DNA of 64,000 bases from assembly GCA_964019335.1 (NCBI GenBank), contig OZ025657.1:767852-831851 (forward strand). The letters are read 5' to 3'. The translations under genes were made by a program, and so were the position numbers. Below, piece by piece: positions 37,922-64,000 of this stretch; the first letter of the stretch is position 1; the number at the start of each line of letters is the position of its first letter. Below the pieces are notes generated by a model. The model was not told where the DNA came from, searched no databases, and saw only the letters and a list, made by a program, of their open reading frames with translations. This DNA comes from Diplonema japonicum. Its lineage: Eukaryota > Protista > Euglenozoa: Diplonemea.

Positions 37922-37992
37922 GGAGGTTGTTTATTATGTGAATACATTACACAGTACCATGTAACACCACACCACAGGAGTCTATCAATAGT

Positions 37993-40900
37993 ATGGAGGC
38001 GGAAAAGATAACAGCCCTTGAGGCGGAGCTCCGAACATGGAAAGAGAAGGCCGGTGAGCTGGAGTCACAAAAAGCTGAGCTGGAGAGCAGAGAGATACGA
38101 TTGGGAAAGAGGGTGATGAAGGAAATCGAGGAAAAGGAAGGAATGTCCAAGAGCGTGATAGAAGCCGAAAGAAGAGAGCATGCCAGCGAGGTGCTGAAAT
38201 TCAAGAGTCAGATAGAAAGTTTGAAAGCAGCGGAAGTATCCGCTAAAGCGAAGTTGAGCCACGTGGAGACTGTTGAGGTGAAGAGGTTGGAGGCGAAAAT
38301 CGAGTCTATCGACACAGAACTCAAGCTGGCGAAGAACGGCTACACAGACTTACAGGAGAGGCTTCAGCAGGATACAGCTGAAAAGAATACGGAATTGGCG
38401 AAAGCGCTGGAGGAGAAGCGTTTTGCAAACACGGAGAAAATCACAGCTATCTCGTCGAAGGAGGTGATGGAAAAGCGCCTGCAGCACCTAATGGAATCCG
38501 TCACATCGCATGAAGGGAGCCTGCAAGAGATGAAGGAGATGTCAAAAAAGCTCAAAAAAGAAACAAGTGAACGCGAGAGCTCGCTGCGAAGGGAAGTCAG
38601 ACAACTGAAGTCGGCAACACGCTCTTTCGAAAACGAAATTGCCACTCTTAAGAAACAGCACGAAGTGTCAAAAGAAGAGGCAACGCAAGCCGAGGACAAA
38701 GTGCAACGTCTCAAGATCAAGCTGCAAGAGATGGGCATTGCTCACGCCAAGGATACAGAGGCAATGGAAAAGGAGAGGAGGTTTGCTGAGAATGAGGTTG
38801 AGAGAATGCGCCTCTTCGCTCAGAGGTTGGAGGAAGGCAAGACGGATACCGAAATAGTTAAGAGACTCCTCGGTGACTCATGCCACCTTGATGAGACAGC
38901 CTTGCAAAAGTTAGCCACAGCACAGCGTCTTGTTGCAGACGAGCTTGACTTAAACATGACGAACGCCTACAGCAAGTGGCTGGAGATGCGGCAGAGGCTT
39001 CAGGCGACCGAGAGCGAGAACAGCAGGCTGATTGACAACCACGCGGCCACAGTCGAAGCGTGCGAGACCATGGCACCCGCTATCTTTAACCAACACCGTG
39101 AATGCCAGCAACTGATTAAGCAGCAGTACAAGCTCCAATCAAGCAACACCCAGTTGTCGAAATCCTACTATGAGGCGCAGAGCGCTCTGTGTGCAGAGAG
39201 GAAGAAGTCAACTGAGAGCGAAAAACAAGTGAAAATACTCGAAGAGCAGTTGAAGGAAATTCAAGGCCAGTTGCGGAAGTGGGTGCAAGAGCCGATCGAA
39301 ACCGAAAATAAAACCAAGGAAGCAACTTCGAGAGCTGACCTGGTTCACAAGCGGAACGTGGAGCTCGAGGAGAAGAATGCCACGTTGAGGGCAAGAATTA
39401 AACACGACACAGACAGGGGCACCAGGGAGAGGGAGATTGAAGAGAGGGCTCGGGAGAAGGTTGAAGCAATCAAACAGGAGTTTGACTATGTGTGCAACGA
39501 AAAGGCTCTGTTTTCTGAGCAGCTGGAAGACGTTAGGCAGCAGCGTGACAAGGTGTTCAAGCTGCTTAGCGACTACGCCAGCGTGTCTTCTGATGTAGAT
39601 CTGCAGACGAAGCTCGGCGATGCACAGAAGGAGGGCGGCTTCTCGGTGGGAGACGTGTCTAGCGAGGTAGGCACCACACTAGGTGCCTTGCAATCCGCGC
39701 TTAATGCGGAAGCACTCCAGTGCAAGCCGATCCAGGTGGGTGAGCTGAAGACGAAGGTAACCGACCTGGAGCTTAAGCTGCAGAACGCCACCGAAAAATT
39801 AGAAGATGTGACATCGAGGTACACCGAAGCTGAGGCAGCGCTGCTGAGGGAGAACGACTACAAAGAGGAACTGCACTGTAAGCTGCAGGAATGCATCGAA
39901 GTCTCGACAAAGAGAGCAGAGGACGAAGTCAAAAAGCAGGAAGAAGTTACAGAGCTGCACAGAGAGAGGGAGACAGCTCTCTTGGAACTCAGGAGTCTTA
40001 AATCTTCTGTCGTGCAGGAGCAGGAAATAGTATGTCTATAGTCATAATACAAGTTTTCACAGCGCGGGCTTGCCGAACAGGATATGGCACACTTGAAGGC
40101 AGTTAACCAGAATCTCGAAAAGCTTTACAGTCAAGCCGTCGAGGACAACAAAATGTATGCTGATATTGCACATGTGCATTCCCTACAGAATGAACGGGTT
40201 TGCGGTTGAGGTGCAGCAGATGGTCGACCAGGTCAGAGATGTGCAGTCCGGAGAAGTGGAGTCGAAGAATAAACTCATGGAAGAACAGCTGAAGAAGATC
40301 AACCAGTTAGAAGAGCTCCGCAGAGAAGAGCGCCAGGACTGGCTTGGTGCCGAGAATCGTCTGAAGCTGCGATTGAGGGAAGCGAAGACACAGCAGTACG
40401 CTGCCGAAGACGAATGCAGACGGAACGAGTCTGTTGCCATTAAGCTAAAACACGAATTGGAAACAGCGAAGAAGGTGACCGAGCATTTGGAGAGCAGGAC
40501 TGAATTCTTGCAAAACCACTTGAAAAAGGTGCTCACACTAGGGGCAGAGCGAGCGGATGAGTCTGTCATGCAGGCAAACACTATTGAAACATTGAACAAG
40601 GAAGTAGCTATGCTGAAGGACATCAAGGCTGCCTTGGAGAGCAAGTACGAAGCAGGCACCGCAGAATGGGAAGAAGCCAAGTCAGAAAGGGAGACGCTCC
40701 GTTCTTACAACAAGGAGCTTGCAAACCGTGTAGAAGAGCTGGAGAACGTGCAAAAGAATGCACGGGAGATAGCATCCACAAACCAGAAGCAACTGCAAGA
40801 TAAGCTTGATAAGGTATGACAGATCACAAACATCAACACCCACAGACCGTCGAAGATCTCTCAGAGACAACCCAGCAACTCAAAAATGCAAAGGCTGAAG

Positions 40901-43683
40901 TGGAGAAGCAGGCGAAGCTTGTATGCGACAATAACAACAACAACAACGATACCCAATATCAATAACTAGGTCGTGATTTGCGAGAGCGAGAAAGTAGCCT
41001 TGATTCAAGAGATCGAAAGCCTGAACCATAAGGTCACTTCTACGAAGCAGACACTTGACGCGGCATACACGGAAAGGAATAAGGGCCACATTGAGTTGGG
41101 CAGCGTGATGGAAGATGCGAAGCGTTGGAAAGAAGAAAACATAGAGCTCAAAAAGAAGGTCGCAGAGGCAGCTGCGCAGATCAGCACGAACCAAGCAGTT
41201 GACAAGACAGCAGTGACTGCAGCGCAGAGAGAAATAGAAGAGTACAAGAAGGAGGTAGCACTGCTTCGTGAAGATGCTGCCACCAAGGAGCAGATCTTCG
41301 AGAAGCTCTCAGAGGTGATCATCTCCGCAGGGGAAGCCGCAGTGCCAAAGGGTGACGCGCAAGTTGCAACACTGAAGCAGCTGCTAAGCAACAAGAAGCT
41401 TGAATTGCAGCGTTTGACAAACGAGGTGCGCTCACTGCAGCAAAACGTCCGCCCCATATGCACAGTAATGGACAACGAGAAGGTGAACCTGATGGAAATC
41501 AGAAGGCTGTTTAATGAGAAAATCGAACTCTTGAACAAGACGAACACAGCATTGCGCACTGAGCTGTCACGTTCCGAAGAGAAAGAAAAGCTCCTCCAGG
41601 ACGAGATCAAGGAATTGAAGGAGCACATGGCTGAAATCACAAAAGAAAAATCGCGTGCTGAAACTGACAAACGCAAATCCGACCTGAAGGTGAGTGAAGT
41701 GGCACGTGACATTGGTCTCATTGAGGATGCGAGGGTATGAACAAAAACACAACATAGTAACTCATGCAGATCCAACTGAGGGAGAGAACTAAGGTTGAAA
41801 AGCAGATGACAAAGCTGCAAGAGCAATCAAGGGAGAACCAGGTGGTGGTACAAGCTCTGCAATTAGAATTGAGTGAGAAAGATAAGGAGATTGATGAGCG
41901 GACCAAGAAAGAAGAGGAGCTTGTGCAACAGCTGGACAAACTTGCTGCCGACCAACAAAAAGTGACCAAGTTAGAGACCATTGTGCTTTCTCAGCAAAAA
42001 GCCATTGAAGATCAAACTAAGGCTCAAGCAGAAGCAAAAGCAGCAGCTGAGGAGCAGACCAGGGCAGCAGCAGAAGCACAAGCAAGGGCGGCAGCAGCTG
42101 AAGCACAGGCAGCAGAAATACAGGCACAAGCTGACGCGAGGGCTGCAGTGGAAGCACATGCACAAGCTGAGGCGAGGGTAGCAGCAGAGGCACAGGCACA
42201 AGCTGAGGCGAGAGCCGCAGCAGAGGCACAGGCACAGGCACAAGCTGAGGCTAAAGCACTAAATGCAGCGAAGGCAGAAGAGCAAGCACAGGCTGAGGCA
42301 GCTAAAGCCCAAGACGCTGCGAAGGCAAAAGCGGAAGAACAGGCAAAGGCAGTGAAAGCACAAGCTGAGACAGTAACCAAGGCACAAGCCGAGGAAACGC
42401 AGGCAAAACAGGAGCAGGACAAGGCAACTGCAGTGGCTGCTGCAGAGGCAAAACAAGAACAGGTGCAACAAGGGAAGCGTATGAGAGATGAACAGGAGAC
42501 GAACGAGGACGCAAAAAAACGTAAATTGGAGGGCGGTGAGATTGAGGAGGAGGCAGAGGAGCTACCTGTAACCGCAACCATGGAGGTTGAAGCACCTTGC
42601 GAAGAAGCGGAAGAGATTGATGCGTACGCGCAAGAAATGTCTGCTGATCCCGAAGCGTGCGAATTGGAGGCGGAGGCAGTTGAGGAGGCGGAGCAAGTCG
42701 AGGTTACTGATGCCCCCGAAGAAGGTGAGGATGCTGAAGTGCAGGTACGTGGTTTTCAATCTATAACAACATGGCAGGACATCGTGCCGCAGGATACACA
42801 AGCCACGATCTCTACCACTCTGGACGCATCGCAAGAGTCGATGGAGCCCTTTGCTTCTGAGGAAAACTTACAGAAGCCCGGCCTCGACGAAGCAGATGTA
42901 CCTGTGCTTTCAGAGTCGCAAGAGGCCATGGAAGAGCCAGTGCAGGAGGGCGAAGCAGCTAAAGCAACGGAAGCAGAGACCGAGCCTGTTATCGAAGCAG
43001 TGGAGACCGAGCCTCCTGCCGAAGATGAGGCTGAGACAGAAGTGCAGCCCGAGCAGATAGCGACCGACGCTGGCACTGAGGCGTTGCCAACAGAGCAAGA
43101 AGCTGTTCCCGAACCTGCAGCCACTGAAAAGCAAGAAACAGGCACAAGTGGCATATCCCCTCTTGCAACTCCTTTTGCACCAAAACCGGCTCCCAAAACT
43201 GCGTTCACAGCTGTGGCAAACCCGTTCAGTCAAGCACGCGCGAATCCTTTTGGGGCTGGTATGGTACACTGTCAAAACAAAGCATCTACAGCACCCCCAT
43301 CGGCCGCGTCAACCTCGTCAGCTCCGAGCAATCTTAAACGCTCCTTGGGTGAGAGCAAAGAGGAGAAGAAGAAGCCGCGTTGGGCGGAAGGCTGGAGCGA
43401 CACAAAGTATGTTAGTGCCACAACTACGCATTGCGACAGGACTTCGGCCGAAGGCGTACCATCGCACAACCGTGCTGCGGTGGGACCACCAGGGAGCAGG
43501 GGAATGCCCAATGTTGCCACAGAAACAACTGAGCAGGTTGTTTTCCAGTCTCCGACAGATAGCACCCCAGCCTCGCCTACACCTTCCCCAGTGCCCACGA
43601 AGGATAAGAATGAAGAGCTCGTGCAACTGCGAGCTCAACTCGCAGCCTTGCAAGCTAAGCAAACCCAGCCGGCGAGCGAATAG
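37993..43683 (+). CDS. Long coiled-coil protein, TPR/Mlp/NUA-like nuclear basket nucleoporin candidate (~1,802 aa, 8 introns)
   Basis: Introns 40030-40062, 40155-40188, 40814-40845, 40921-40969 and 41735-41769 fuse four track ORFs in frame. Further in-frame introns are likely at 42745-42777, 43259-43291 and 43407-43439. MTNAYSKWLEMRQRLQATESENSRL..VEACETMAPAIFNQHRE resembles the conserved TPR segment. Acidic disordered tail with a bipartite NLS-like KRMRD..KKRK. Confidence 0.6.
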
Positions 43684-55680: not shown

Positions 55681-56315
55681 CTGGTTAGGGCCATTCATGT
55701 TGGTAGTTTGTAGATTATTGTTAGCTGCTAGAATGTTATTCTTGTTTGGGAAGAGTTATGTCTAATTACTATATAGGCAACTGGGCAAAATATCGTGATA
55801 CAAAAAAAAGAAAAAAAAAAAAATACTACGAAGATGGCCCTCATTCTTAGCGCGCTCGCTACAGGGGTGTGCAGGGGTGCTGACCTCAAGTCGATCGACT
55901 CTCCTGGGAGGGGGAACAGCCACCGGAATGGTCGGGAGGTAGGCGAAGCGGTGTCTCTGTTCTTCCAAGTGGAGTTGCCTCGGGGGAGGGGACGGAAGAT
56001 GGTATCCTGTAGTTGGAAGTGATCGCAAGTGACAGGGAGTGCGAGGGACTGCTTCTTCGTTCTGCCTGTTTAAGCTGCACGGTGGAGGGGACGATGAACT
56101 TCATCGGGGCGATGGGAGAACGGTGGCGGAAGTGCCGTACGCGGGAGCATCGTGCTCTGCCACAAACAACAAAAAGGCGGATATATGGGTGGCGCAGTCC
56201 TTCGAGGCGGCAGGGTCGGGGACAAACAGAATGTCGTGCAGCTACATGCTAAAATCCCCACCCCTCCCCCCACTCCCCTTTAGAAAAAAATAAAATTAAA
56301 AACTTACAAGTAGAG

Positions 56316-56353
56316 ACCAACGATTCTAAAGCTACAGTTTCTGTACTTTATTG
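56316..56353 (+). other. Spliced-leader exon copy 1 (nt 2-39 of a diplonemid-type SL)
   Basis: ACCAACGATTCTAAAGCTACAGTTTCTGTACTTTATTG, with the euglenozoan SL 3' half CAGTTTCTGTACT(T/A)TATTG. Followed by GTCGTT rather than an SL-RNA GTATG donor. Confidence 0.9.
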
Positions 56354-56870
56354 GTCGTTCGTGTTCTGCTGGTGCCTGCCTGCCGCCTCTGCCTGGGTTT
56401 GCCGCTGCGTCCGTCGTCGCCGTCGTCCGGGGTTGTTTTGCCTGTCGGCCTGCCCGCCGCTTACCGAAAGGATCCCCTCCCCCCAACACACACTTTAAAA
56501 AAAAAATAAAAAAAATAAAAAATGGATCCAAGACGGAACGCAAGAGGAGGTGACTGCGCAAACCGCAGGGAGAAGGAACCCCGACAGGCCGCCAGGCTGC
56601 ACACGACGCCAGGGCCGACCCAACCAGACTATCTGGTTGGGCAGTATGAATCCCCACCCCCCTTTAGAAAAAAAAAATAATAAAATAAAAAAACCACAAG
56701 CAGAGACCGCGGTTTTGACCGCCGCAACCAAGGGAGCAGCAGCCGCCCCTGCTACAGCCACGGCCGCCCCAGCCGCTGAACGCCGCAGCCGACCCTGCCG
56801 CCCCAAACGCCGCAGCCGCCCCTGCCGCAACCGAGACCGCTGCAGCCGCCCCTGCCGCAGCCACGACCGA
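56316..56870 (+). mobile_element. Truncated copy of the SL-headed element (5' UTR and start of ORF only)
   Basis: Near-identical to 60486-~61024; similarity starts exactly at the SL and ends near gccacgaccg. Upstream flanks differ. Confidence 0.75.
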
Positions 56871-56992
56871 CACGAGGCAGCCAGTCGGGGCCTGACACAC
56901 CTAGGGGTGGGATCCAGACGCCAGAGGGAGATCTAAGTAAAAAAGACAAAAATCTTTTTCTAAGAAAGAAAAAAAATTTATAAGTACAAAAA

Positions 56993-57270
56993 TTTCCCTT
57001 AAGGGGGCCCTTAAGGCGAGCAGGGTGGAAAAAAAAATTTTTTTTTTCCCAAGTACAAAAATTTTGGTAACATTTCGCCTAACCCCTATGATCCCCAAAA
57101 TCCCCCTCATAAAAATTTTCCCCAAAGTGGAAAACCCACGGTGGTATACAGGCGTTTTCGGTTTGAAAAGGGAAAAAGTTGAAACACCCGAAGTCGAACC
57201 GGGGTCCAAAATTCCCTTAGGGAAAATCCCTTAAGGAATTCCCTTAGGAAACCCCTTAGGGAAAAACCCC
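56993..57270. repeat. Degenerate palindromic CCCTTA(A)GG / TTAGGG-related repeats
   Basis: tttcccttaagggggcccttaagg at ~56993 and attcccttagggaaaatcccttaaggaattcccttaggaaaccccttaggg at 57211-57261. Confidence 0.6.
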
Positions 57271-57698
57271 TGTGTACTTACTTACTAAGGCAGCATAGGC
57301 TTCTCCAGGAGGCCCATTTTTGCTACCCAGTCCACGCACGACAAGCTGATGGATTTGAAGGCCGCCTACAAGCGGGACCGCATCACTCGACTTCGCAAGA
57401 CGCTCACAGCCTCGATCGGGATGAAAGCAATGCTCCAGAAGGGGAGTATTAACAGATAGACCCCCCCCCCCCCCCCCCCCCCCCTCCCATAGGGCGGCCC
57501 TCTAGCGGGGGCTTGTCCTGTACTTTGAGTTTAATAAATAGTTATTCGTCACCTTTTTCTTGAAGATGTTCGTTTCACAGTAGGTTTTTTTATTTTCTAG
57601 AGGTTCTTCTTCTTCATTTGACTCCTGCAGCCTTCGAGACAAAGCACACAGGGAAAATACATTAGAAAAAAAAGAATAAAAAACGAACCCAAAAGAAC

Positions 57699-59055
57699 AT
57701 GAATGGAAAGAGAGAGGGATCAGGTGAAGAGGTGAACGATATGACAGTGTTCGTGAAGACGGGAGGCGGGGTTCACGATGTGGAAGTGTCGGGGAAGGAG
57801 ACGGTGGGGATCCTGTACAAGAAGGCGGGGTGTGCTGCTGGTTTACTCGAAGGCAAGTTCAAACTGGTTTGGGAGGGAGAGGTCCTGGACAGGAACGGGG
57901 GTGAAGATATCCAGGAACTCGGGCTCGTGGAGGGCAGCGTGGTACATGTGGAGGCGAAGATGAGAACCGTTCAGCTGGAGGAGCTTGAGAGCTCAGAAGT
58001 GGTTTCAGAGCTTGAGGAGCTTGTGACAGCTGACCCTGAGCTGGTTCTGGTGGTGGAGGTGGGGAACTCGCCAGCTGTCGAAGTCTTGTCCATGAAGACG
58101 ACGGTCCTTCCTTCTGGACTTCGGTTCCTCGTTGTCACCGACTCCACAGGCTGTGTTACAAGGATAGGCTCTGGGTTTCTTGAAGAGTGCGACCACCTGA
58201 CGTCTGTTGATCTCATCCTCCCCCAATGTTTCCACCATTGATAAAAAATTTTTATATGAGTGCAAAAATCTAGAAACCATCGACTTGAATGCGATGACCA
58301 ATCTTTCTTCTATTGGTGATAGCTTCTTGTCTGGGTGCGTAAAACTAGAAACCATCAACTTGAATGCGATGACCAATCTTTCTTCCATTGGTCATGGCTT
58401 CTTGAAAGGGTGTGTACTAGAAACCATCAACTTGAATGCGATGACCAATCTTTCTTCTATTGGTGATTACTTCTTGTATGAGTGCGTACTAGAAACCATC
58501 AACTTGAATACGTTGACCAATCTTTCTTCCATTGGTCATAGCTTCTTGTCTGGGTGTAAAAAACTAGAAACCATCGACTTGAATGCGATGACCAATCTTT
58601 CTTCCATTGGCAATAGCTTCTTGGGTGGGTGTGAAAAACTAGAAACCATCGACTTGAATGCGTTGACCAATCTTTCTTCCATTGGCGATAACTTCTTGTC
58701 TGGGTGTAAAAAACTAGAAACCATCGACTTGAATGTGATGACCAATCTTTCTTCCATTGGTGATGACTTCTTGTCTGAGTGCGAAAAACTGGAAACCATC
58801 GACTTGAATGCGTTGACCAATCTTTCTTCCATTGGTCATGGCTTCTTGATTGAGTGCGTAAAACTAGAAACCATCGACTTGAATGCGTTGACCAATCTTT
58901 CTTCCATTGGTGATGGCTTCGTGGCTTGGTGCGAAAAACTAGAAACCATCGACTTGAATGCGTTGACCAATCTTTCTTCCATTGGTCATAGCTTCTTGAA
59001 GGGGTGCGTAAAAGTAGAAACTGTCGACTTGAATTTAAGAAAAGTCGGTGTTTAG
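57699..59055 (+). pseudogene. Ubiquitin-like plus BspA-type LRR gene with a frameshift near 58210-58225
   Basis: ORF 57699-58241 holds the Ubl and the first LRR (VTRIGSGFLEECDHLTSVDL). The LRR array continues in another frame (58207-59055). No GT-AG intron at the junction, so pseudogene or sequence error. Confidence 0.65.
58276..59035 (+). repeat. Coding tandem repeat, ~10 near-identical 75-nt (25-aa) LRR units, two of them 72 nt
   Basis: The unit gaaaccatcgacttgaatgcg(a/t)tgaccaatctttcttccattggt recurs; protein TNLSSIGxxFLxxCxKLETIDLNAx. Confidence 0.95.
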
Positions 59056-60074
59056 AAGAAGAAGAAAAAAAGAGGGGAAAAAAAGAAGAAAAAAGAACAC
59101 CCTGGCGCTGAGAAACATCTTTGTGGAAAAACCAACGGAAAGCAATACAATACCTCGAAGACACCGGGGACCTGCCCCCCTCCGCAACAACTCCACAACA
59201 ACTAACCTGCTGAAGTAGCATGCCGATCAGAAGGCGGCTGAGGCACTTGTCATTTAATCAGAATCCCGAGATCCCATCCCTGATCCCCAAATAGAGAGTG
59301 TACCATCCTGTTTCTCGCGGAAACAGAGAACCTACCCCCTCCCCACCACAGCACCCGACCAATCAGATGCAACAGTGTGAAAAAAAAAAAAGCCCCCCTC
59401 TCCCCAAACAAAACAAACAAACAAACAAACATTTCCCCACCCCCGATAACGTATAATTAAGAAAAAATATGGGGGGGAAAGGATACTGAGGTCCGGCACC
59501 CTTAGTAGCCAAAAAAAAAAGGGAAGGGAAGGGAAGGGACCCTCCCCCTGACCTACAGCAACCCGCCCCCTAAAAGAAAAAAATAGGCGGCAGGCAGTCG
59601 AACGCTGCGTGTGTGGTGTTGCTGTGTGGGTTGTCGGTGCTGTGCTGTTGCTGTGCGCGCTGTCTGGTGTTTTCCTCCCTCCTCCCGCCCCCAAGTCCCG
59701 GCGCTCAGCTCCACCAGCGTCTCACATCAGACGCCAGCTGAGCAGCCTCACCCCCGGCCCCCTACTCCAGGCCGCGAAAAGCCCGACACAACTGTGTTGA
59801 CCCCTGACAACTTCGGTCAAGTCAAAGTCGGCAAACTCCCTTAGAAAAAAAAAAAAAAAAAAAGTAGACTTGTTATCTTCCCTTTCTTTCCTTTCTTTCT
59901 TTTGTTGTCTGTGTTCATCTGTAAAAAAAAAAAAAAAGTCACCTAGAAATCCCTGTATTTTCCTTTCTCTTTTTTTTGTTTTTGTTTTTTGTTTTTGTTT
60001 GTTTTTACATAGAAATCCACTAGAAATCCTCTTTCCTTTCTTCTTTCTTCTCTTTTCTCTCTTTTCCTTTCTTT

Positions 60075-60485: not shown

Positions 60486-60523
60486 ACCAACGATTCTAAA
60501 GCTACAGTTTCTGTACTTTATTG
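60486..60523 (+). other. Spliced-leader exon copy 2 (nt 2-39)
   Basis: Identical 38-mer to 56316-56353, followed by the same GTCGTTCGTGTTCTGCTGG. Confidence 0.9.
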
Positions 60524-60694
60524 GTCGTTCGTGTTCTGCTGGTGCCTGCCGCCTCTGCCTGGGTTTGCTGCTGCGTCCGTCGTCCGTCGTCGCCGTCGTC
60601 CGGGGGGGTTGTTTTGCCTGTCGGCCTGCCCGCCGCTTACCGAAAGGATCCCCTCCCCCAACACACACTTTAAAAAAAATAAAAAAAATAAAAA

Positions 60695-61752
60695 ATGGAT
60701 CCAAGACGGAACGCAAGAGGAGGTGACCGCGCAAACCGCAGGGAGAAGGAACCCCGACAGGCCGCCAGGCTGCACACGACGCCAGGGCCGACCCAACCAG
60801 ACTATCTGGTTGGGCAGTATGAATCCCCACCCCCACCCCCTAGATCCCCCCACCCCCCTTTAGAAAAAAAAATAAAATAAAAAAATCACTAGCAGAGACC
60901 GCGGTTTTGACCGCCGCTGCTACAGCCACGGCCGCCCCAGCCGCCCTGAACGCCGCAGCCGACCCTGCCGCCCTGATCGCCGCAACTGAGACCGCCGCAG
61001 CCGCCCCTGCCGCAGCCACGACCGCCGCGACCACGACCCCTGCAGCCGACCCTGCTATTGTTGAAGAGGGAAGAAAAGAGGGAGAAAAAAAGGGGTGGGT
61101 ACTGGTGTATGGTGAACACCCTCCCGGGTTGAGGACGGGCCCGGCCCCTGCCTTCCCGAAAGCCCTGCTTTCAGGAAAGTGGGAGGCCCTGTCTGGGAAC
61201 TCAGGGAGGGAGACCCTCCAATACGGGTACCGGTGGGAGGGGACGAACGCCAAGGTGCGCCCCACCACGGGGATCCCAGCAGGGGGGGCGGAGGGGTGGG
61301 TGAGGGAGGTGGCCGCCGCCGCAGGGCTCGAGGTGGTCCCCAACCAGGTACTTGTCAACAAGTACAAGTCTGGTTGTGGGATTGCCGCCCACAAGGACGA
61401 CGCGAGGCTGGGACCGATTGTCCTAGTCCTCTCGTACGGAGCCGAGACCACAATGGTCATGAGGAGGGGGGACAGGGTGGCGAAATACCTGGTGCCCCCC
61501 TTCTCATGGGCATTGTTGGAAGGTGAAGCGAGACACCAGTGGACGCACCACATCCCGTCCGGGATGTCCACTGGTGTCAGGGTGTCGATCACCCTGCGTG
61601 CGGTAGGCCCCAAGCTCACCCGCACACCCCAGAAAGACCCATCCCCTGGGTTAACAGACGAACCCCCTTTTTTAGATCCCCTTTTTGTGGGCAAGGGGGG
61701 GTGGCACTCCCAAGAGAGGATAGTGCCCCACCCGCCCCCCTTTTTTTTTTAG
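60695..61752 (+). pseudogene. Element polyprotein part 1: Ala-rich N-terminus plus AlkB-family 2OG-Fe(II) dioxygenase domain
   Basis: ATG 60695 (MDPRRNARGG) with a 1-nt break in the A-run at ~60863-60885. PNQVLVNKY, GIAAHKD (HxD at 61390-61398), LSYGA, GEARHQWTHHIP (distal His) and RVSITLR (R-x5-R) form a complete AlkB catalytic set. Confidence 0.85.
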
Positions 61753-62162
61753 AACCCTCTTCGGAGGAAAACAGACCCTCTTCGGAGGAAAATAGAGAGA
61801 AAGGGGAAGAGGTGGCACTCCCGAGAGAGGGTGGTGCTCCTCCCCCCCATTTGTCCCCCCCTTTTTCATTTTTAGAGCCCTCTCCAGAGGAACCCTCCAC
61901 GGAGGTAAAAAACAGACCCTCTTCGGAGGAAAACAGAGAGAGAGGGGAAGAGGTGGCACTCCCGAGAGAGGGTAGTGTTCCTCCCCCCCATTCGTCCCCC
62001 CCTTTTTCTTTTATAGAGCCCTCTCCAGAGGGACCCTCCACGGAGGTGAAAAACAGACCCTCTTCGGAGGAAAAAAAGGCAGAGGGAGAGACAGCACGCC
62101 CGAGAGAAGGTAGTGCCCCTCCCTCTCTGCCCCCCATTTTTTCTGGACCCTCTACGGAGGTG
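61701..62162 (+). repeat. ~3 tandem 141-nt (47-aa) units inside the element ORF
   Basis: agaccctcttcggaggaaaa recurs at 61773, 61914 and 62055 (period 141); protein RPSSEENREKGEEVALPREG..PPFSFLEP. Confidence 0.9.
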
Positions 62163-63048
62163 TACACCCTGGTCCCCAAGGGCCGGGGGCTTTTTTTGAG
62201 GGTGGAAGGGAAAGAAAAAAAAAAAACAAACAAGGAGGAACCTTTTTTCTTTTCAAACAACCAGGGGGACCCAGCACCCACCCCCACCGCCCGCCAAGGT
62301 GTGGTTGGGGCGGAGGCTGCGAGCGACGTGAGAGCACCACTGCACACCCTTGTGAGAAGACAGAAAAGAGCCCCCTGGATTGCCATGGGTGGCAGGGAAC
62401 CTAAGCCAGCGCCCAAGCGGAAGAAGAACAGGAGGAGGCACAGGAGCGAAGCGGCCCTTCAGAGGCGTCGGGAGAAGAGGACCAAGGCGAGGGAGGGGGC
62501 GAGGGAGGCTGCCAGACAGGAGAAGAAAAGGCACCGTCGTGCGAGGAAAGAAGGGAGGAGGAGGGCCCGCAGAGAGGAACACGAGGCCGCCCTGGAACAG
62601 AAGCCAGATGACCCTGCAATGGGGCTGAAGCGGACCGAGGTGGGAACGCCTGGAGCCCAACCCCTGGCACCCAGAATCCCGGCACCTGGGGCTGCAACCG
62701 GCACAAGGAGGCACCGCAGACGGACGGGACACAGCAAGGAAGGGGTGAGATGGGAGCACCTGGGGGCGTGGGCCTGGGTCGCCCTGTTCTCCCTCTTGCT
62801 GATCCCAGGGGTGAGGCAGGTGCTGGGGGCGGGCATCGGGATGGCCCCCTCCTTCCTGCATGCGGCAGTGTTGTGGAAGAGGCCGGGGAGCGACAGGAGG
62901 ACCACCCGCAGGTCAAGGGTACAGGTGGGGCCCCGAGGGGATGAATGGTCCGCCGGGGAGCTCGCTTGGCTAGCGGTAGGGGGCACTCTGGTGGGAAGCA
63001 CTTCAGTTTGGATAGGGGGGCTGATGTCGCTCTGGGCCATGGTGGAAG

Positions 63049-64000
63049 CTCTGGGCCATGGTGGAAGTGATGGTGGGGAAAGCTGGTGCTGGCCCGACCC
63101 AGAGATTCGGACCGGTAAAGCTGAAGAAGACAAGACGCGGATCGAGAGGTCACTACCGGCCGGTGTACTTGGGCCCGCCTAGAAGCTCAAGACGCAGAAA
63201 AAAGAAGGAGGACGCCAAGCAAGCGGCGAAGGAACGAGCTGAGACGGAGGATAAGCTCTTTCAGGCCGAACACCTGGGCCCCTTTGCGGACTTGACGCTG
63301 GCAGGGGACGCGTTGCAAGGAGGTGGTGACCCTCCCCCCATGGATTTGGATGATGAGCACATGGAGGCGCAGAAGGAGGGGGAAAAAGAAGGATCAGACA
63401 AACATCAATGCCGGATGGAAGACTGCTCTTTCCGCACCAGTGTGGCAAGCTGTCTAGTTAAACACCTCAATGCGGTCCACCATCATTTTGTGAAACAAGA
63501 GCAGGCGAGGAGCATGAAGGTGAACCTCTGTGGAACGTGTGCTGCGGCGTGCTCGTCGAACCAGACGCACTGTGCACTACACAGGCAGCGGAATCTGTGG
63601 AACCCCGACAAACAACCCAGGGCCGGCAAGTCAGTGGACGAGATCATGAAGAGCTTCAAGCTGACGAGGAGATCGACGGAGAAGGACGGGAACTGCATGT
63701 TCCACGCCCTGGCCGGTTCGCTCGGGGAAGCCTACGGCGACCACACCCACATCAGGAGCGAGGTTGTAGAATGGATGAAACACCGGGAGGAGCACTATGC
63801 CCCGTTTTGCAGTGAGGGTTGGGGCCGGTACTTGGAAGGGATGGGCACAGCAGCGACGTGGGGAGACCACTTGTGCCTGGCAGCCGCAGCACAAGCGTTT
63901 GGCCGCACGATACTCGTGGTTGCTGGGGGGAACAACCCAGTCCTGATGATAGGGGAGTACAACTCCGACCACGAGAAGGTGGTGGTGCTGGCGTACAACG
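63049..64000 (+). CDS. Element polyprotein part 3 (not in ORF track): C2H2 zinc finger, Cys/His cluster and OTU cysteine protease, open to window end
   Basis: Manual translation in the frame of 63061: CRMEDCSFRTSVASCLVKHLNAVH (63409-63480), CGTCAAACSSNQTHCALH, then DGNCMFHALA..IRSEVVEWM..YLEGM...WGDHLCLAAAAQAFGRTILV..VVLAYN (OTU; the catalytic His is expected just past base 64000). Confidence 0.85.

Follow-up and report, generated by a model that had tools for sequence, protein, structure and literature searches.

AlkB and OTU domains co-occur in Betaflexiviridae replicases, both domain types lying in one polyprotein. Each domain also has precedent in transposons (PMC9289625, PMC11417382, PMC2836005). 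HLE2 Helitrons (PMC11417382) and Ginger1 (PMC2836005) are DNA transposons without an SL head that are described with captured PF13532 and/or OTU domains, and most captured domains of HLE elements lie in separate ORFs. A Ty3/Gypsy LTR retrotransposon of Phalaenopsis carries, in a separate ORF, an ALKBH5-like enzyme with demonstrated m6A activity (PMC9289625). In published descriptions, CRE elements insert into the SL and have a single ORF with one or two internal repeat regions and one or two zinc fingers (PMC12278014). AlkB and OTU go unmentioned in the accounts of CRE elements drawn on here (PMC12278014, PMC5814959, PMC3636483). Among the NeSL/Utopia RLE elements, NeSL targets the SL and has a ubiquitin-like-protein protease, Ulp1, in the N-terminal part of its ORF (PMC4640811). 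In D. papillatum, 745 SLACS-type RT proteins are placed in one orthogroup (PMC10161547). No non-LTR retrotransposon with both AlkB and OTU was found in searches of the open-access literature.

The window, the whole 64,000-nt stretch of Diplonema japonicum DNA that was analyzed, ends within an SL-headed unit that encodes both domains. We lean toward a CRE/SLACS-like non-LTR retrotransposon with captured enzymes, of which this unit would be the 5' half. The features of the unit and of a second copy are as follows.

56316..56875, plus strand: second copy, which has the SL+GT head, the UTR and the start of the ORF and stops within the Ala-rich linker (83.9% identity over 595 columns)
60486..60525, plus strand: SL exon nucleotides 2-39 plus GT
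60526..60694, plus strand: 5' UTR, A-free from 60524 to 60638 and A-rich before the ATG
60695..60816, plus strand: ORF start, ATG at 60695 and about 40 codons, aligned with the second copy, which has it too
60817..60872, plus strand: frame break 1, due either to a missing base in the A-run at 60864-60872 or to a 47-nt GT-AG intron at 60817-60863
60891..61060, plus strand: Ala/Thr/Pro-rich repetitive linker
61090..61620, plus strand: predicted AlkB-family Fe(II)/2OG oxygenase of the ALKBH8/bacterial group 2A type (Pfam, PDB, plasmid tblastn, pairwise comparison, motifs)
61682..61686, plus strand: frame break 2, a T-run lacking one base that other copies have
61768..62123, plus strand: Pro/Glu/Ser tandem repeat, 2.5 copies of an in-frame 141-bp (47-aa) unit
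62418..62585, plus strand: Arg/Lys-rich tract
62751..63070, plus strand: two moderately hydrophobic segments with a basic stretch between them
63029..63067, plus strand: frame break 3, a 19-nt tandem duplication
63409..63582, plus strand: C2H2 finger, then a Cys3-His cluster
63631..64000, plus strand: OTU cysteine protease (Asp 63685, Cys 63694), ending with the window just before the catalytic His

The SL head proposed in the earlier note is genuine. Its 40 nt are 100% identical to an SL RNA gene in locus L018, which has 5S, U6 and tRNA genes as neighbors. Exact 36-nt matches to the SL exon occur in the window at 56318 and 60488, and none occurred in 100 shuffles. Both SL-headed copies (56316 and 60486) start at SL nucleotide 2 and keep the GT seen after the exon in the SL gene, so the CRE-type 5' junction is present in 2/2 copies. 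The L018 gene reads on as GTATGG, and the GT in the copies either represents the opening dinucleotide of the SL-gene intron or stands there by chance. The 40-nt heads are the only matches of both copies to L018, and they come without SL nucleotide 1 or sequence from upstream of the SL gene. These two copies lie outside any SL gene array, and neither is inserted in an SL RNA gene repeat. The 171-nt UTR and the ATG at 60695 agree with the earlier description. The 5' UTR fold was not unusual (z -0.45), and Rfam gave no credible match to a ribozyme or structured RNA for the 5' UTR. Pairing-back of the post-SL bases to hide the splice donor was matched by 172-453 of 5000 random controls that fold equally well.

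Sequencing runs show that the unit is repeated. Half or more of the element words were present in 12 of the 23 runs listed, and some part of the element was found in at least 18 rows from at least 11 studies among the matches listed. No RNA data set was among these listed matches, which has no bearing on expression. Several different sequences follow SL+GT, with loose ends behind 60525 in runs X1, X3 and X5 and a sister form that diverges behind 60535 in X3, X4 and X5, as expected for several SL-headed families. Depth was also high just upstream of the SL in 2/4 runs, so the actual 5' boundary of the element may lie elsewhere. An SL-to-62210 joint in 3/4 runs has a short side of only 21 letters and was left out of the reasoning. 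Variant forms at ~91-92% identity span the AlkB and OTU parts in run contigs. Main-form depth was ~2500-2700 in X3 and 700-880 in X4, compared to 43-87 and 10-23, respectively, for minor contigs; the runs are not on record as DNA or RNA. These uncalibrated depths give no more than a hint of a copy number in the tens. The second copy, with its ATG at 56522, sits 4.2 kb upstream of the main unit and is absent from the earlier note. It retains the 5' part and lacks the 3' part, the reverse of the usual retrotransposon truncation.

Three frame breaks are present, as the earlier note states, and the first can also be read as an intron. Reading through with X at each break gives 1081 positions with no stop. 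Break 2 is closed by an extra T in 4/4 runs, at full local depth in three of them. The break 3 duplication is absent at full depth from X5, which closes the frame in 1/4 runs; X1, X3 and X4 did not resolve it. The break 1 region was masked in the comparison with the runs. The ATG-to-anchor distance is 197 nt, and the A-run has 9 bases in the main unit compared to 10 in the second copy. One more A would close the frame, and an intron is an alternative taken up below. The breaks look local to the copy at 60486, and a single ORF most likely encoded both AlkB and OTU.

The internal repeats and the zinc fingers fit a CRE-type layout. The 47-aa repeats and the Arg/Lys tract (16 R/K in 30 residues) were found as described earlier, and the tract is predicted to function in nucleic-acid binding or nuclear localization. 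The hydrophobic segments are also present at only moderate strength (Kyte-Doolittle 1.68 and 1.53 over 19 aa), and a membrane role for them is uncertain. The C2H2 finger at 63409 and the Cys/His cluster at 63529 are pattern matches, as claimed; Pfam gave no match in 63409..63582. With break 1 closed by inference and break 3 closed in one run, the internal repeats and N-terminal zinc fingers of the unit lie within one continuous ORF. The SL exon at the 5' junction, the single long ORF, the internal repeats, the zinc fingers and the euglenozoan host are shared with the CRE clade (SLACS, CZAR, CRE1/2; PMC12278014, PMC5814959, PMC3636483). The present copies differ in lying outside SL arrays. The window ends inside OTU and contains no reverse transcriptase, endonuclease (RLE included), poly(A) tail or target-site duplication. 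The best RT signal in the window was a tblastn match at E 3.7 with the L019 protein as query. The repeated SL-headed unit and the CRE-like layout stand from the claim of a mobile element, and any mobility domains would lie beyond the window. L019 is an independent SL-headed ORF that encodes a hydrophobic segment, a basic stretch, Cys/His clusters and then RT (RVT_1 E 1.9e-18). Its protein has no detectable sequence similarity to the AlkB-OTU protein, and TG rather than GT comes after the SL in L019. The similar layout of L019, taken with the SL head, repeats and zinc fingers, leads us to infer a retroelement. A 2A-like motif occurs in L019, and no 2A peptide was found within the window.

The AlkB domain matches PF13532 at E 9.4e-14. 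The metal and 2OG ligands reported as intact are all present in the main copy: HxD (61390), His (61546) and RxxxxxR (61579-61599). The last conserved Arg is altered in an X5 contig. The best PDB match is ALKBH8 (E 1.3e-8, 37.9 bits), compared to only 16-18 bits for ALKBH2/3. The domain is 29% identical to a Roseobacter plasmid enzyme, and both have the ALKBH8-type lid motif. Judged by best hits and the lid motif rather than a tree, the predicted enzyme is of the ALKBH8/group 2A type (PMC4051686, PMC2790896). It differs from that group in its lack of an RRM and a methyltransferase, its place inside a mobile-element ORF and its identity of only ~30%. It also differs from the ALKBH5-like Phalaenopsis enzyme in type and in being fused to the rest of the ORF (PMC9289625). 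A single-sequence AlphaFold model (pLDDT 34.7) was not relied on, and an AlkB homolog search returned 0/935 candidates. GGA-codon enrichment, considered because of the ALKBH8 tRNA target, was rejected (19/102 compared to 247/1031 in host genes, p 0.27).

Two claims of the earlier note are left without support. Plant-virus AlkBs are described as group 1B/ALKBH2-3-like (PMC2553587), and the present domain does not group with that Flexiviridae type when judged by ALKBH2/3 scores rather than viral sequences. The OTU is closest to cellular OTUD5/3/1, and no methyltransferase, helicase or RdRp was seen. The AlkB-OTU pairing shared with Betaflexiviridae is at most convergence, and the virus-like label is not supported. 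The proposed RNA demethylation/repair role is likewise unsupported. No ALKBH8-type enzyme tested in one study reactivated methylated RNA phage, and the same source regards the natural substrate of the stand-alone enzymes as an open question (PMC4051686).

The OTU domain claimed earlier is supported by PF02338 at E 6.2e-13, the DGNC and WG motifs and the catalytic Asp and Cys. Its triad is incomplete because the His would fall past 64000, outside the window. The His is found in the sister protein P0001 of Diplonema ambulator, and it is hinted at by the letters after 63998 in one divergent X3 contig. Contigs of X3, X4 and X5 extend 160-378 nt past 64000. P0001 bears on the first alternative, that the unit is an RT-less, SL-headed retroposed chimeric gene or non-autonomous cargo, amplified in trans by host SLACS/LINE enzymes, whose ORF ends soon past OTU. 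We consider this unlikely. P0001 is a 328-aa ORF that stops ~100 aa past OTU without RT or AlkB, but its ends look like frameshifted fragments, so this stop is weak evidence. RT-linked OTU relatives were absent from the protein, Pfam-scanned and metagenome sets: there were 0 matches among 460-2000 aa proteins, and RT or AlkB occurred in 0/25 Pfam-scanned OTU matches picked as top-scoring or long from the 150 listed and in 0/8 ORFs scanned from 17 metagenome loci. An exact 26-mer from the OTU end had no match in metagenome or genome contigs. A single low-complexity stretch and the SL are the only matches to the element in the two MAGs behind L018 and L019, which contain no OTU. The SL head demonstrates passage through RNA, not autonomy. 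The zinc fingers, internal repeats and SL+GT junction fit the CRE layout and argue against an RT-less unit.

A different autonomous class that gained its SL head once and may keep the intron at 60817-60863 is improbable. The candidates are an HLE2-like Helitron, a DDE element such as Ginger1, a TATE-like recombinase element, a Penelope-like element and an endogenous virus. HLE2 Helitrons are reported to bear both PF13532 and OTU domains (PMC11417382), and Ginger1 bears OTU and introns (PMC2836005). The 47-nt GTATG..YAG segment suits predicted short host introns and its removal restores the frame, but the intron filter lacks specificity, giving 19 candidate rows on the plus strand and 10 on the minus strand, and break 1 is accounted for just as well by one extra A. 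Viral small oxygenases make up most of the nearest Atlas clusters to AlkB (score 0.95), but no relatives were found in PHROGs or IMG/VR, and phage tblastn gave no match. Pfam found no RepHel or DDE transposase in the window, and the 25 longest pairs out of 352 included no terminal inverted repeat at the SL end. In both copies the 5' end is the same and is set by the SL. It is very improbable that the assembly joined unrelated repeats into a chimera where a repeat-rich region ends: the region is homopolymer-rich (8.8 runs per kb compared to 0.5-1.7 in host genes) and no contig spans AlkB to OTU or the whole unit, but in X3 and X5 the depth changes little between AlkB and OTU, most of the unit is covered by contigs that overlap, and breaks 2 and 3 are bridged in frame-restoring form by single contigs.

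The CRE/SLACS-like reading suggests the following mechanism. The element RNA would bear a capped SL, acquired through co-transcription from the SL gene it inserted into (exon plus GT retained), which has about an even chance, or through trans-splicing. Full-length reverse transcription would copy the leader down to nucleotide 2, and the copies would have landed outside the SL array. One long polyprotein would contain AlkB, the repeats, the basic tract, the hydrophobic segments, the zinc fingers and OTU, then RT and a restriction-like endonuclease encoded past base 64000. The OTU would deubiquitinate the element protein or host factors, a role also proposed for the Ulp1/OTU cargo of other transposons. 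NeSL has Ulp1, whereas the present element has OTU plus AlkB and belongs to another host and clade (PMC4640811). The ALKBH8-type oxygenase would most likely hydroxylate or dealkylate a bulky base adduct or modified uridine, not m6A, in nucleic acid handled by the element. Our tentative hypothesis is an active, autonomous SL-headed CRE-type element of Diplonema-like protists that combines ALKBH8-type oxygenase, OTU, RT and endonuclease in one polyprotein, brings its own base-modifying and anti-ubiquitin tools, is expressed via the capped leader and arose independently of plant RNA viruses. If true, it would be the first non-LTR element with both an ALKBH8-type oxygenase and OTU.

Without RT, the locus would be a multi-copy SL-headed chimeric gene of modest significance. 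If RT is confirmed, an early-branching SL-associated retrotransposon would have recruited, from different sources, the same accessory pair as plant RNA viruses and Helitrons. It would offer a compact ALKBH8-type enzyme that is amenable to assay and belongs to a selfish element, and the pairing would suggest that diplonemid hosts control mobile elements through ubiquitin and base modification.

The window content is eukaryotic. Every gene between 1 and 55,700, including those for kinases, DnaJ, ankyrin, and PfkB, is encoded on the + strand; beyond about 55,700 the sequence is rich in repeats and homopolymers up to the window end. Homopolymer runs of at least 6 bases number 8.6-8.8 per kb in this end compared to 0.5-1.7 in the gene region. 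The features are as follows.

3-27998 (+), open frame of 9,332 codons that contains kelch repeats
37942-43680, coiled-coil gene cut by predicted GTATG..YAG introns of 32-49 nt, well below the D. papillatum median length
56316-56875, copy 1, a 5'-only second copy of the spliced leader (SL)-headed element
56940-57460, homopolymer-rich stretch downstream of copy 1 with short CCCTTAGGG-type repeats
57295-57456, small protein-like frame within that stretch, no Pfam match
57700-59055, between the two SL-headed copies, ubiquitin-like domain (PF00240), then BspA-type LRRs from a 75-bp x10 array; frame break near 58240
59603-59692, 90 nt without A, resembling the element UTR, no SL; possible 5' end of a further element
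60486-64000 (+), the element, ATG at 60695, AlkB then OTU
~60817-60872, break 1 in the element frame
61682-61686, break 2, a T-run
63029-63067, break 3, a 19-nt tandem duplication

A 36-nt SL pattern matches the window twice (56318 and 60488) and 100 shuffles not at all, which bears out the earlier note's view that an SL exon heads the unit. Both copies share a 40-nt match with the SL RNA gene on L018, a contig filed in a bacterial MAG; the match comprises exon nucleotides 2-39 plus GT, after which the gene reads ATGG and the element reads CG. SL nucleotide 1 and the sequence upstream of the SL gene are absent from the element and copy 1 alike. The element SL exon is identical to that of the L018 gene, which is linked with 5S rRNA, a linkage described in D. 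papillatum (PMC10161547). Together with the Diplonema ambulator protein closest to the element OTU, this points to a probable diplonemid host. L018 (1-2578) packs SL RNA, 5S, U6, U5, SRP, and many tRNAs into 2.6 kb and is a eukaryotic ncRNA cluster contaminating the MAG.

A leader joined to foreign sequence outside an SL array would most simply come from reverse transcription of a capped RNA. Trans-splicing could have added the leader, or the element could have been co-transcribed with an SL gene that it had targeted. Co-transcription is favored by the GT that follows the SL (chance odds 1 in 16) and by the several different continuations behind SL+GT among those listed in sequencing runs X1, X3, and X5. 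CRE elements insert between SL nucleotides 11 and 12 (PMC5814959) and make target-site duplications, and their co-transcription with the target has been proposed (PMC3636483). The dispersed sites favor trans-splicing, as does L019, a contig with an SL-headed RT element in which TG follows the SL. The UTR lacks A between the GT that follows the SL and the earliest AG, at 60645-60646 (window 60524-60646), and this stretch could be a candidate trans-splice acceptor or a cis intron whose excision would recreate an SL-headed mRNA. The upstream flank of copy 1 (56253-56318) resembles element-internal 60848-60900 (75%) with ACC common at the SL join, suggesting that copy 1 may have joined an older fragment through microhomology.

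Placing an X at each of the three breaks between the ATG and the window end gives 1,081 positions without a stop. The extra T behind 61681 at break 2 is found in 4/4 runs compared, where it reaches the full local depth in X3, X4, and X5 and about one-third of it in X1; the four runs stem from three studies, and one may be the window's own source. The break 3 duplication is missing from X5 at full depth, and the site is unresolved in X1, X3, and X4. The run comparison covered breaks 2 and 3; at break 1, one added base would close the frame (distance 197 nt; the A-run is 9 in the element and 10 in copy 1), and a one-base lesion is the probable cause. Removal of a 47-nt GTATG..TTTAG intron would also close the frame, and this segment resembles the predicted 32-49 nt host introns. 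The filter behind this intron candidate has low specificity, with 19 candidate rows on the plus strand and 10 on the minus strand, and an X4 variant 6 nt shorter at break 1 keeps the frame. The proposal of three local lesions in one ORF stands at break 2 in all runs and at break 3 in X5, but break 1 may be an intron. AlkB-OTU continuity derives from the window and its tiling because none of the listed run contigs covers the span between these domains.

The AlkB domain (PF13532, E 9.4e-14) retains the full set of metal and 2OG ligands, in agreement with the intact catalytic residues reported earlier. Among solved structures, ALKBH8 scores highest (37.9 bits), followed by a fission-yeast protein (26.3) and ALKBH2/3 (16-18). 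All 19 plasmid matches are 27-36% identical and mostly alphaproteobacterial; one of them, an enzyme from a plasmid of Roseobacter denitrificans, has a lid motif in common with the element AlkB, and the group 2A AlkBs of this species are plasmid-borne (PMC2790896). The nearest Atlas clusters consist of small, mostly viral oxygenases (score 0.95), a lead only; plant-virus AlkBs are similar to group 1B and ALKBH2/3 (PMC2553587). ALKBH8-type enzymes of bacteria, protozoa, and mimivirus preferred etheno adducts; those tested failed to reactivate methylated RNA phage, while the tRNA wobble uridine was hydroxylated by two of the enzymes (PMC4051686). Action on m6A or in RNA repair is therefore less likely, against the RNA-demethylation/repair role first assigned to this domain. 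Among the changes listed in a divergent X5 contig, many cluster in the linker preceding the AlkB core and one replaces the last conserved AlkB Arg.

The predicted OTU domain is present (PF02338, E 6.2e-13) and is cut by the window edge, with the catalytic His position falling just beyond. The closest structures are OTUD5, OTUD3, and OTUD1, compared to E ~0.09 for viral OTUs. The closest relative is the Diplonema ambulator transcriptome protein P0001 (48% identity over 138 aa), and FastTree places the two as sisters (support 0.996) among the top 40 of 154 scoring proteins. P0001 has neither AlkB nor RT, and neither was found in the 25 OTU relatives scanned from at least 150 matches listed.

AlkB occurs together with OTU in Betaflexiviridae. 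Among mobile elements, an orchid Gypsy retrotransposon has an AlkB, but as an m6A demethylase in a separate ORF (PMC9289625). HLE2 Helitrons carry PF13532 and OTU (PMC11417382, including a supplement row), Ginger1 carries OTU (PMC2836005), and the SL-targeting NeSL carries Ulp1 (PMC4640811). The sections of PMC12857005 on CRE-clade architecture contain nothing on OTU. In line with the earlier note, the literature search found no non-LTR retrotransposon with AlkB plus OTU; Repbase and subscription journals were outside this search.

The retroelement reading holds in part. The SL junction, single ORF, internal repeats, and zinc fingers make an anatomical case for a CRE-like element (layout from PMC12278014), but the 64-kb window contains no RT or other mobility domain. 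D. papillatum has 745 SLACS-type RT proteins (PMC10161547 supplement). L019 carries a related, euglenozoan-type SL, followed by a short UTR, hydrophobic segment, basic stretch, Cys/His clusters, and RT; its protein has no sequence similarity to that of the element and is an analogue only. This RT element (L019 1-2186) is filed in a Planctomycetota MAG and has a 2A-like motif ahead of the Cys/His clusters. Against a CRE-like element, copy 1 is 5'-only, P0001 stops early, and the sequence immediately preceding the SL is deeply covered in X1 and X3, unlike in X4 and X5. Neither the element nor copy 1 resides in an SL array, which holds for these two copies only. The element is not filed as a CRE member because both copies lie outside SL arrays and the RT and restriction-like endonuclease would lie beyond the window span. 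An RT in the same ORF as AlkB and OTU is conceivable, if somewhat doubtful. By its anatomy, the element, with its captured enzymes, would work as SL-associated retroelements of the CRE/NeSL type do.
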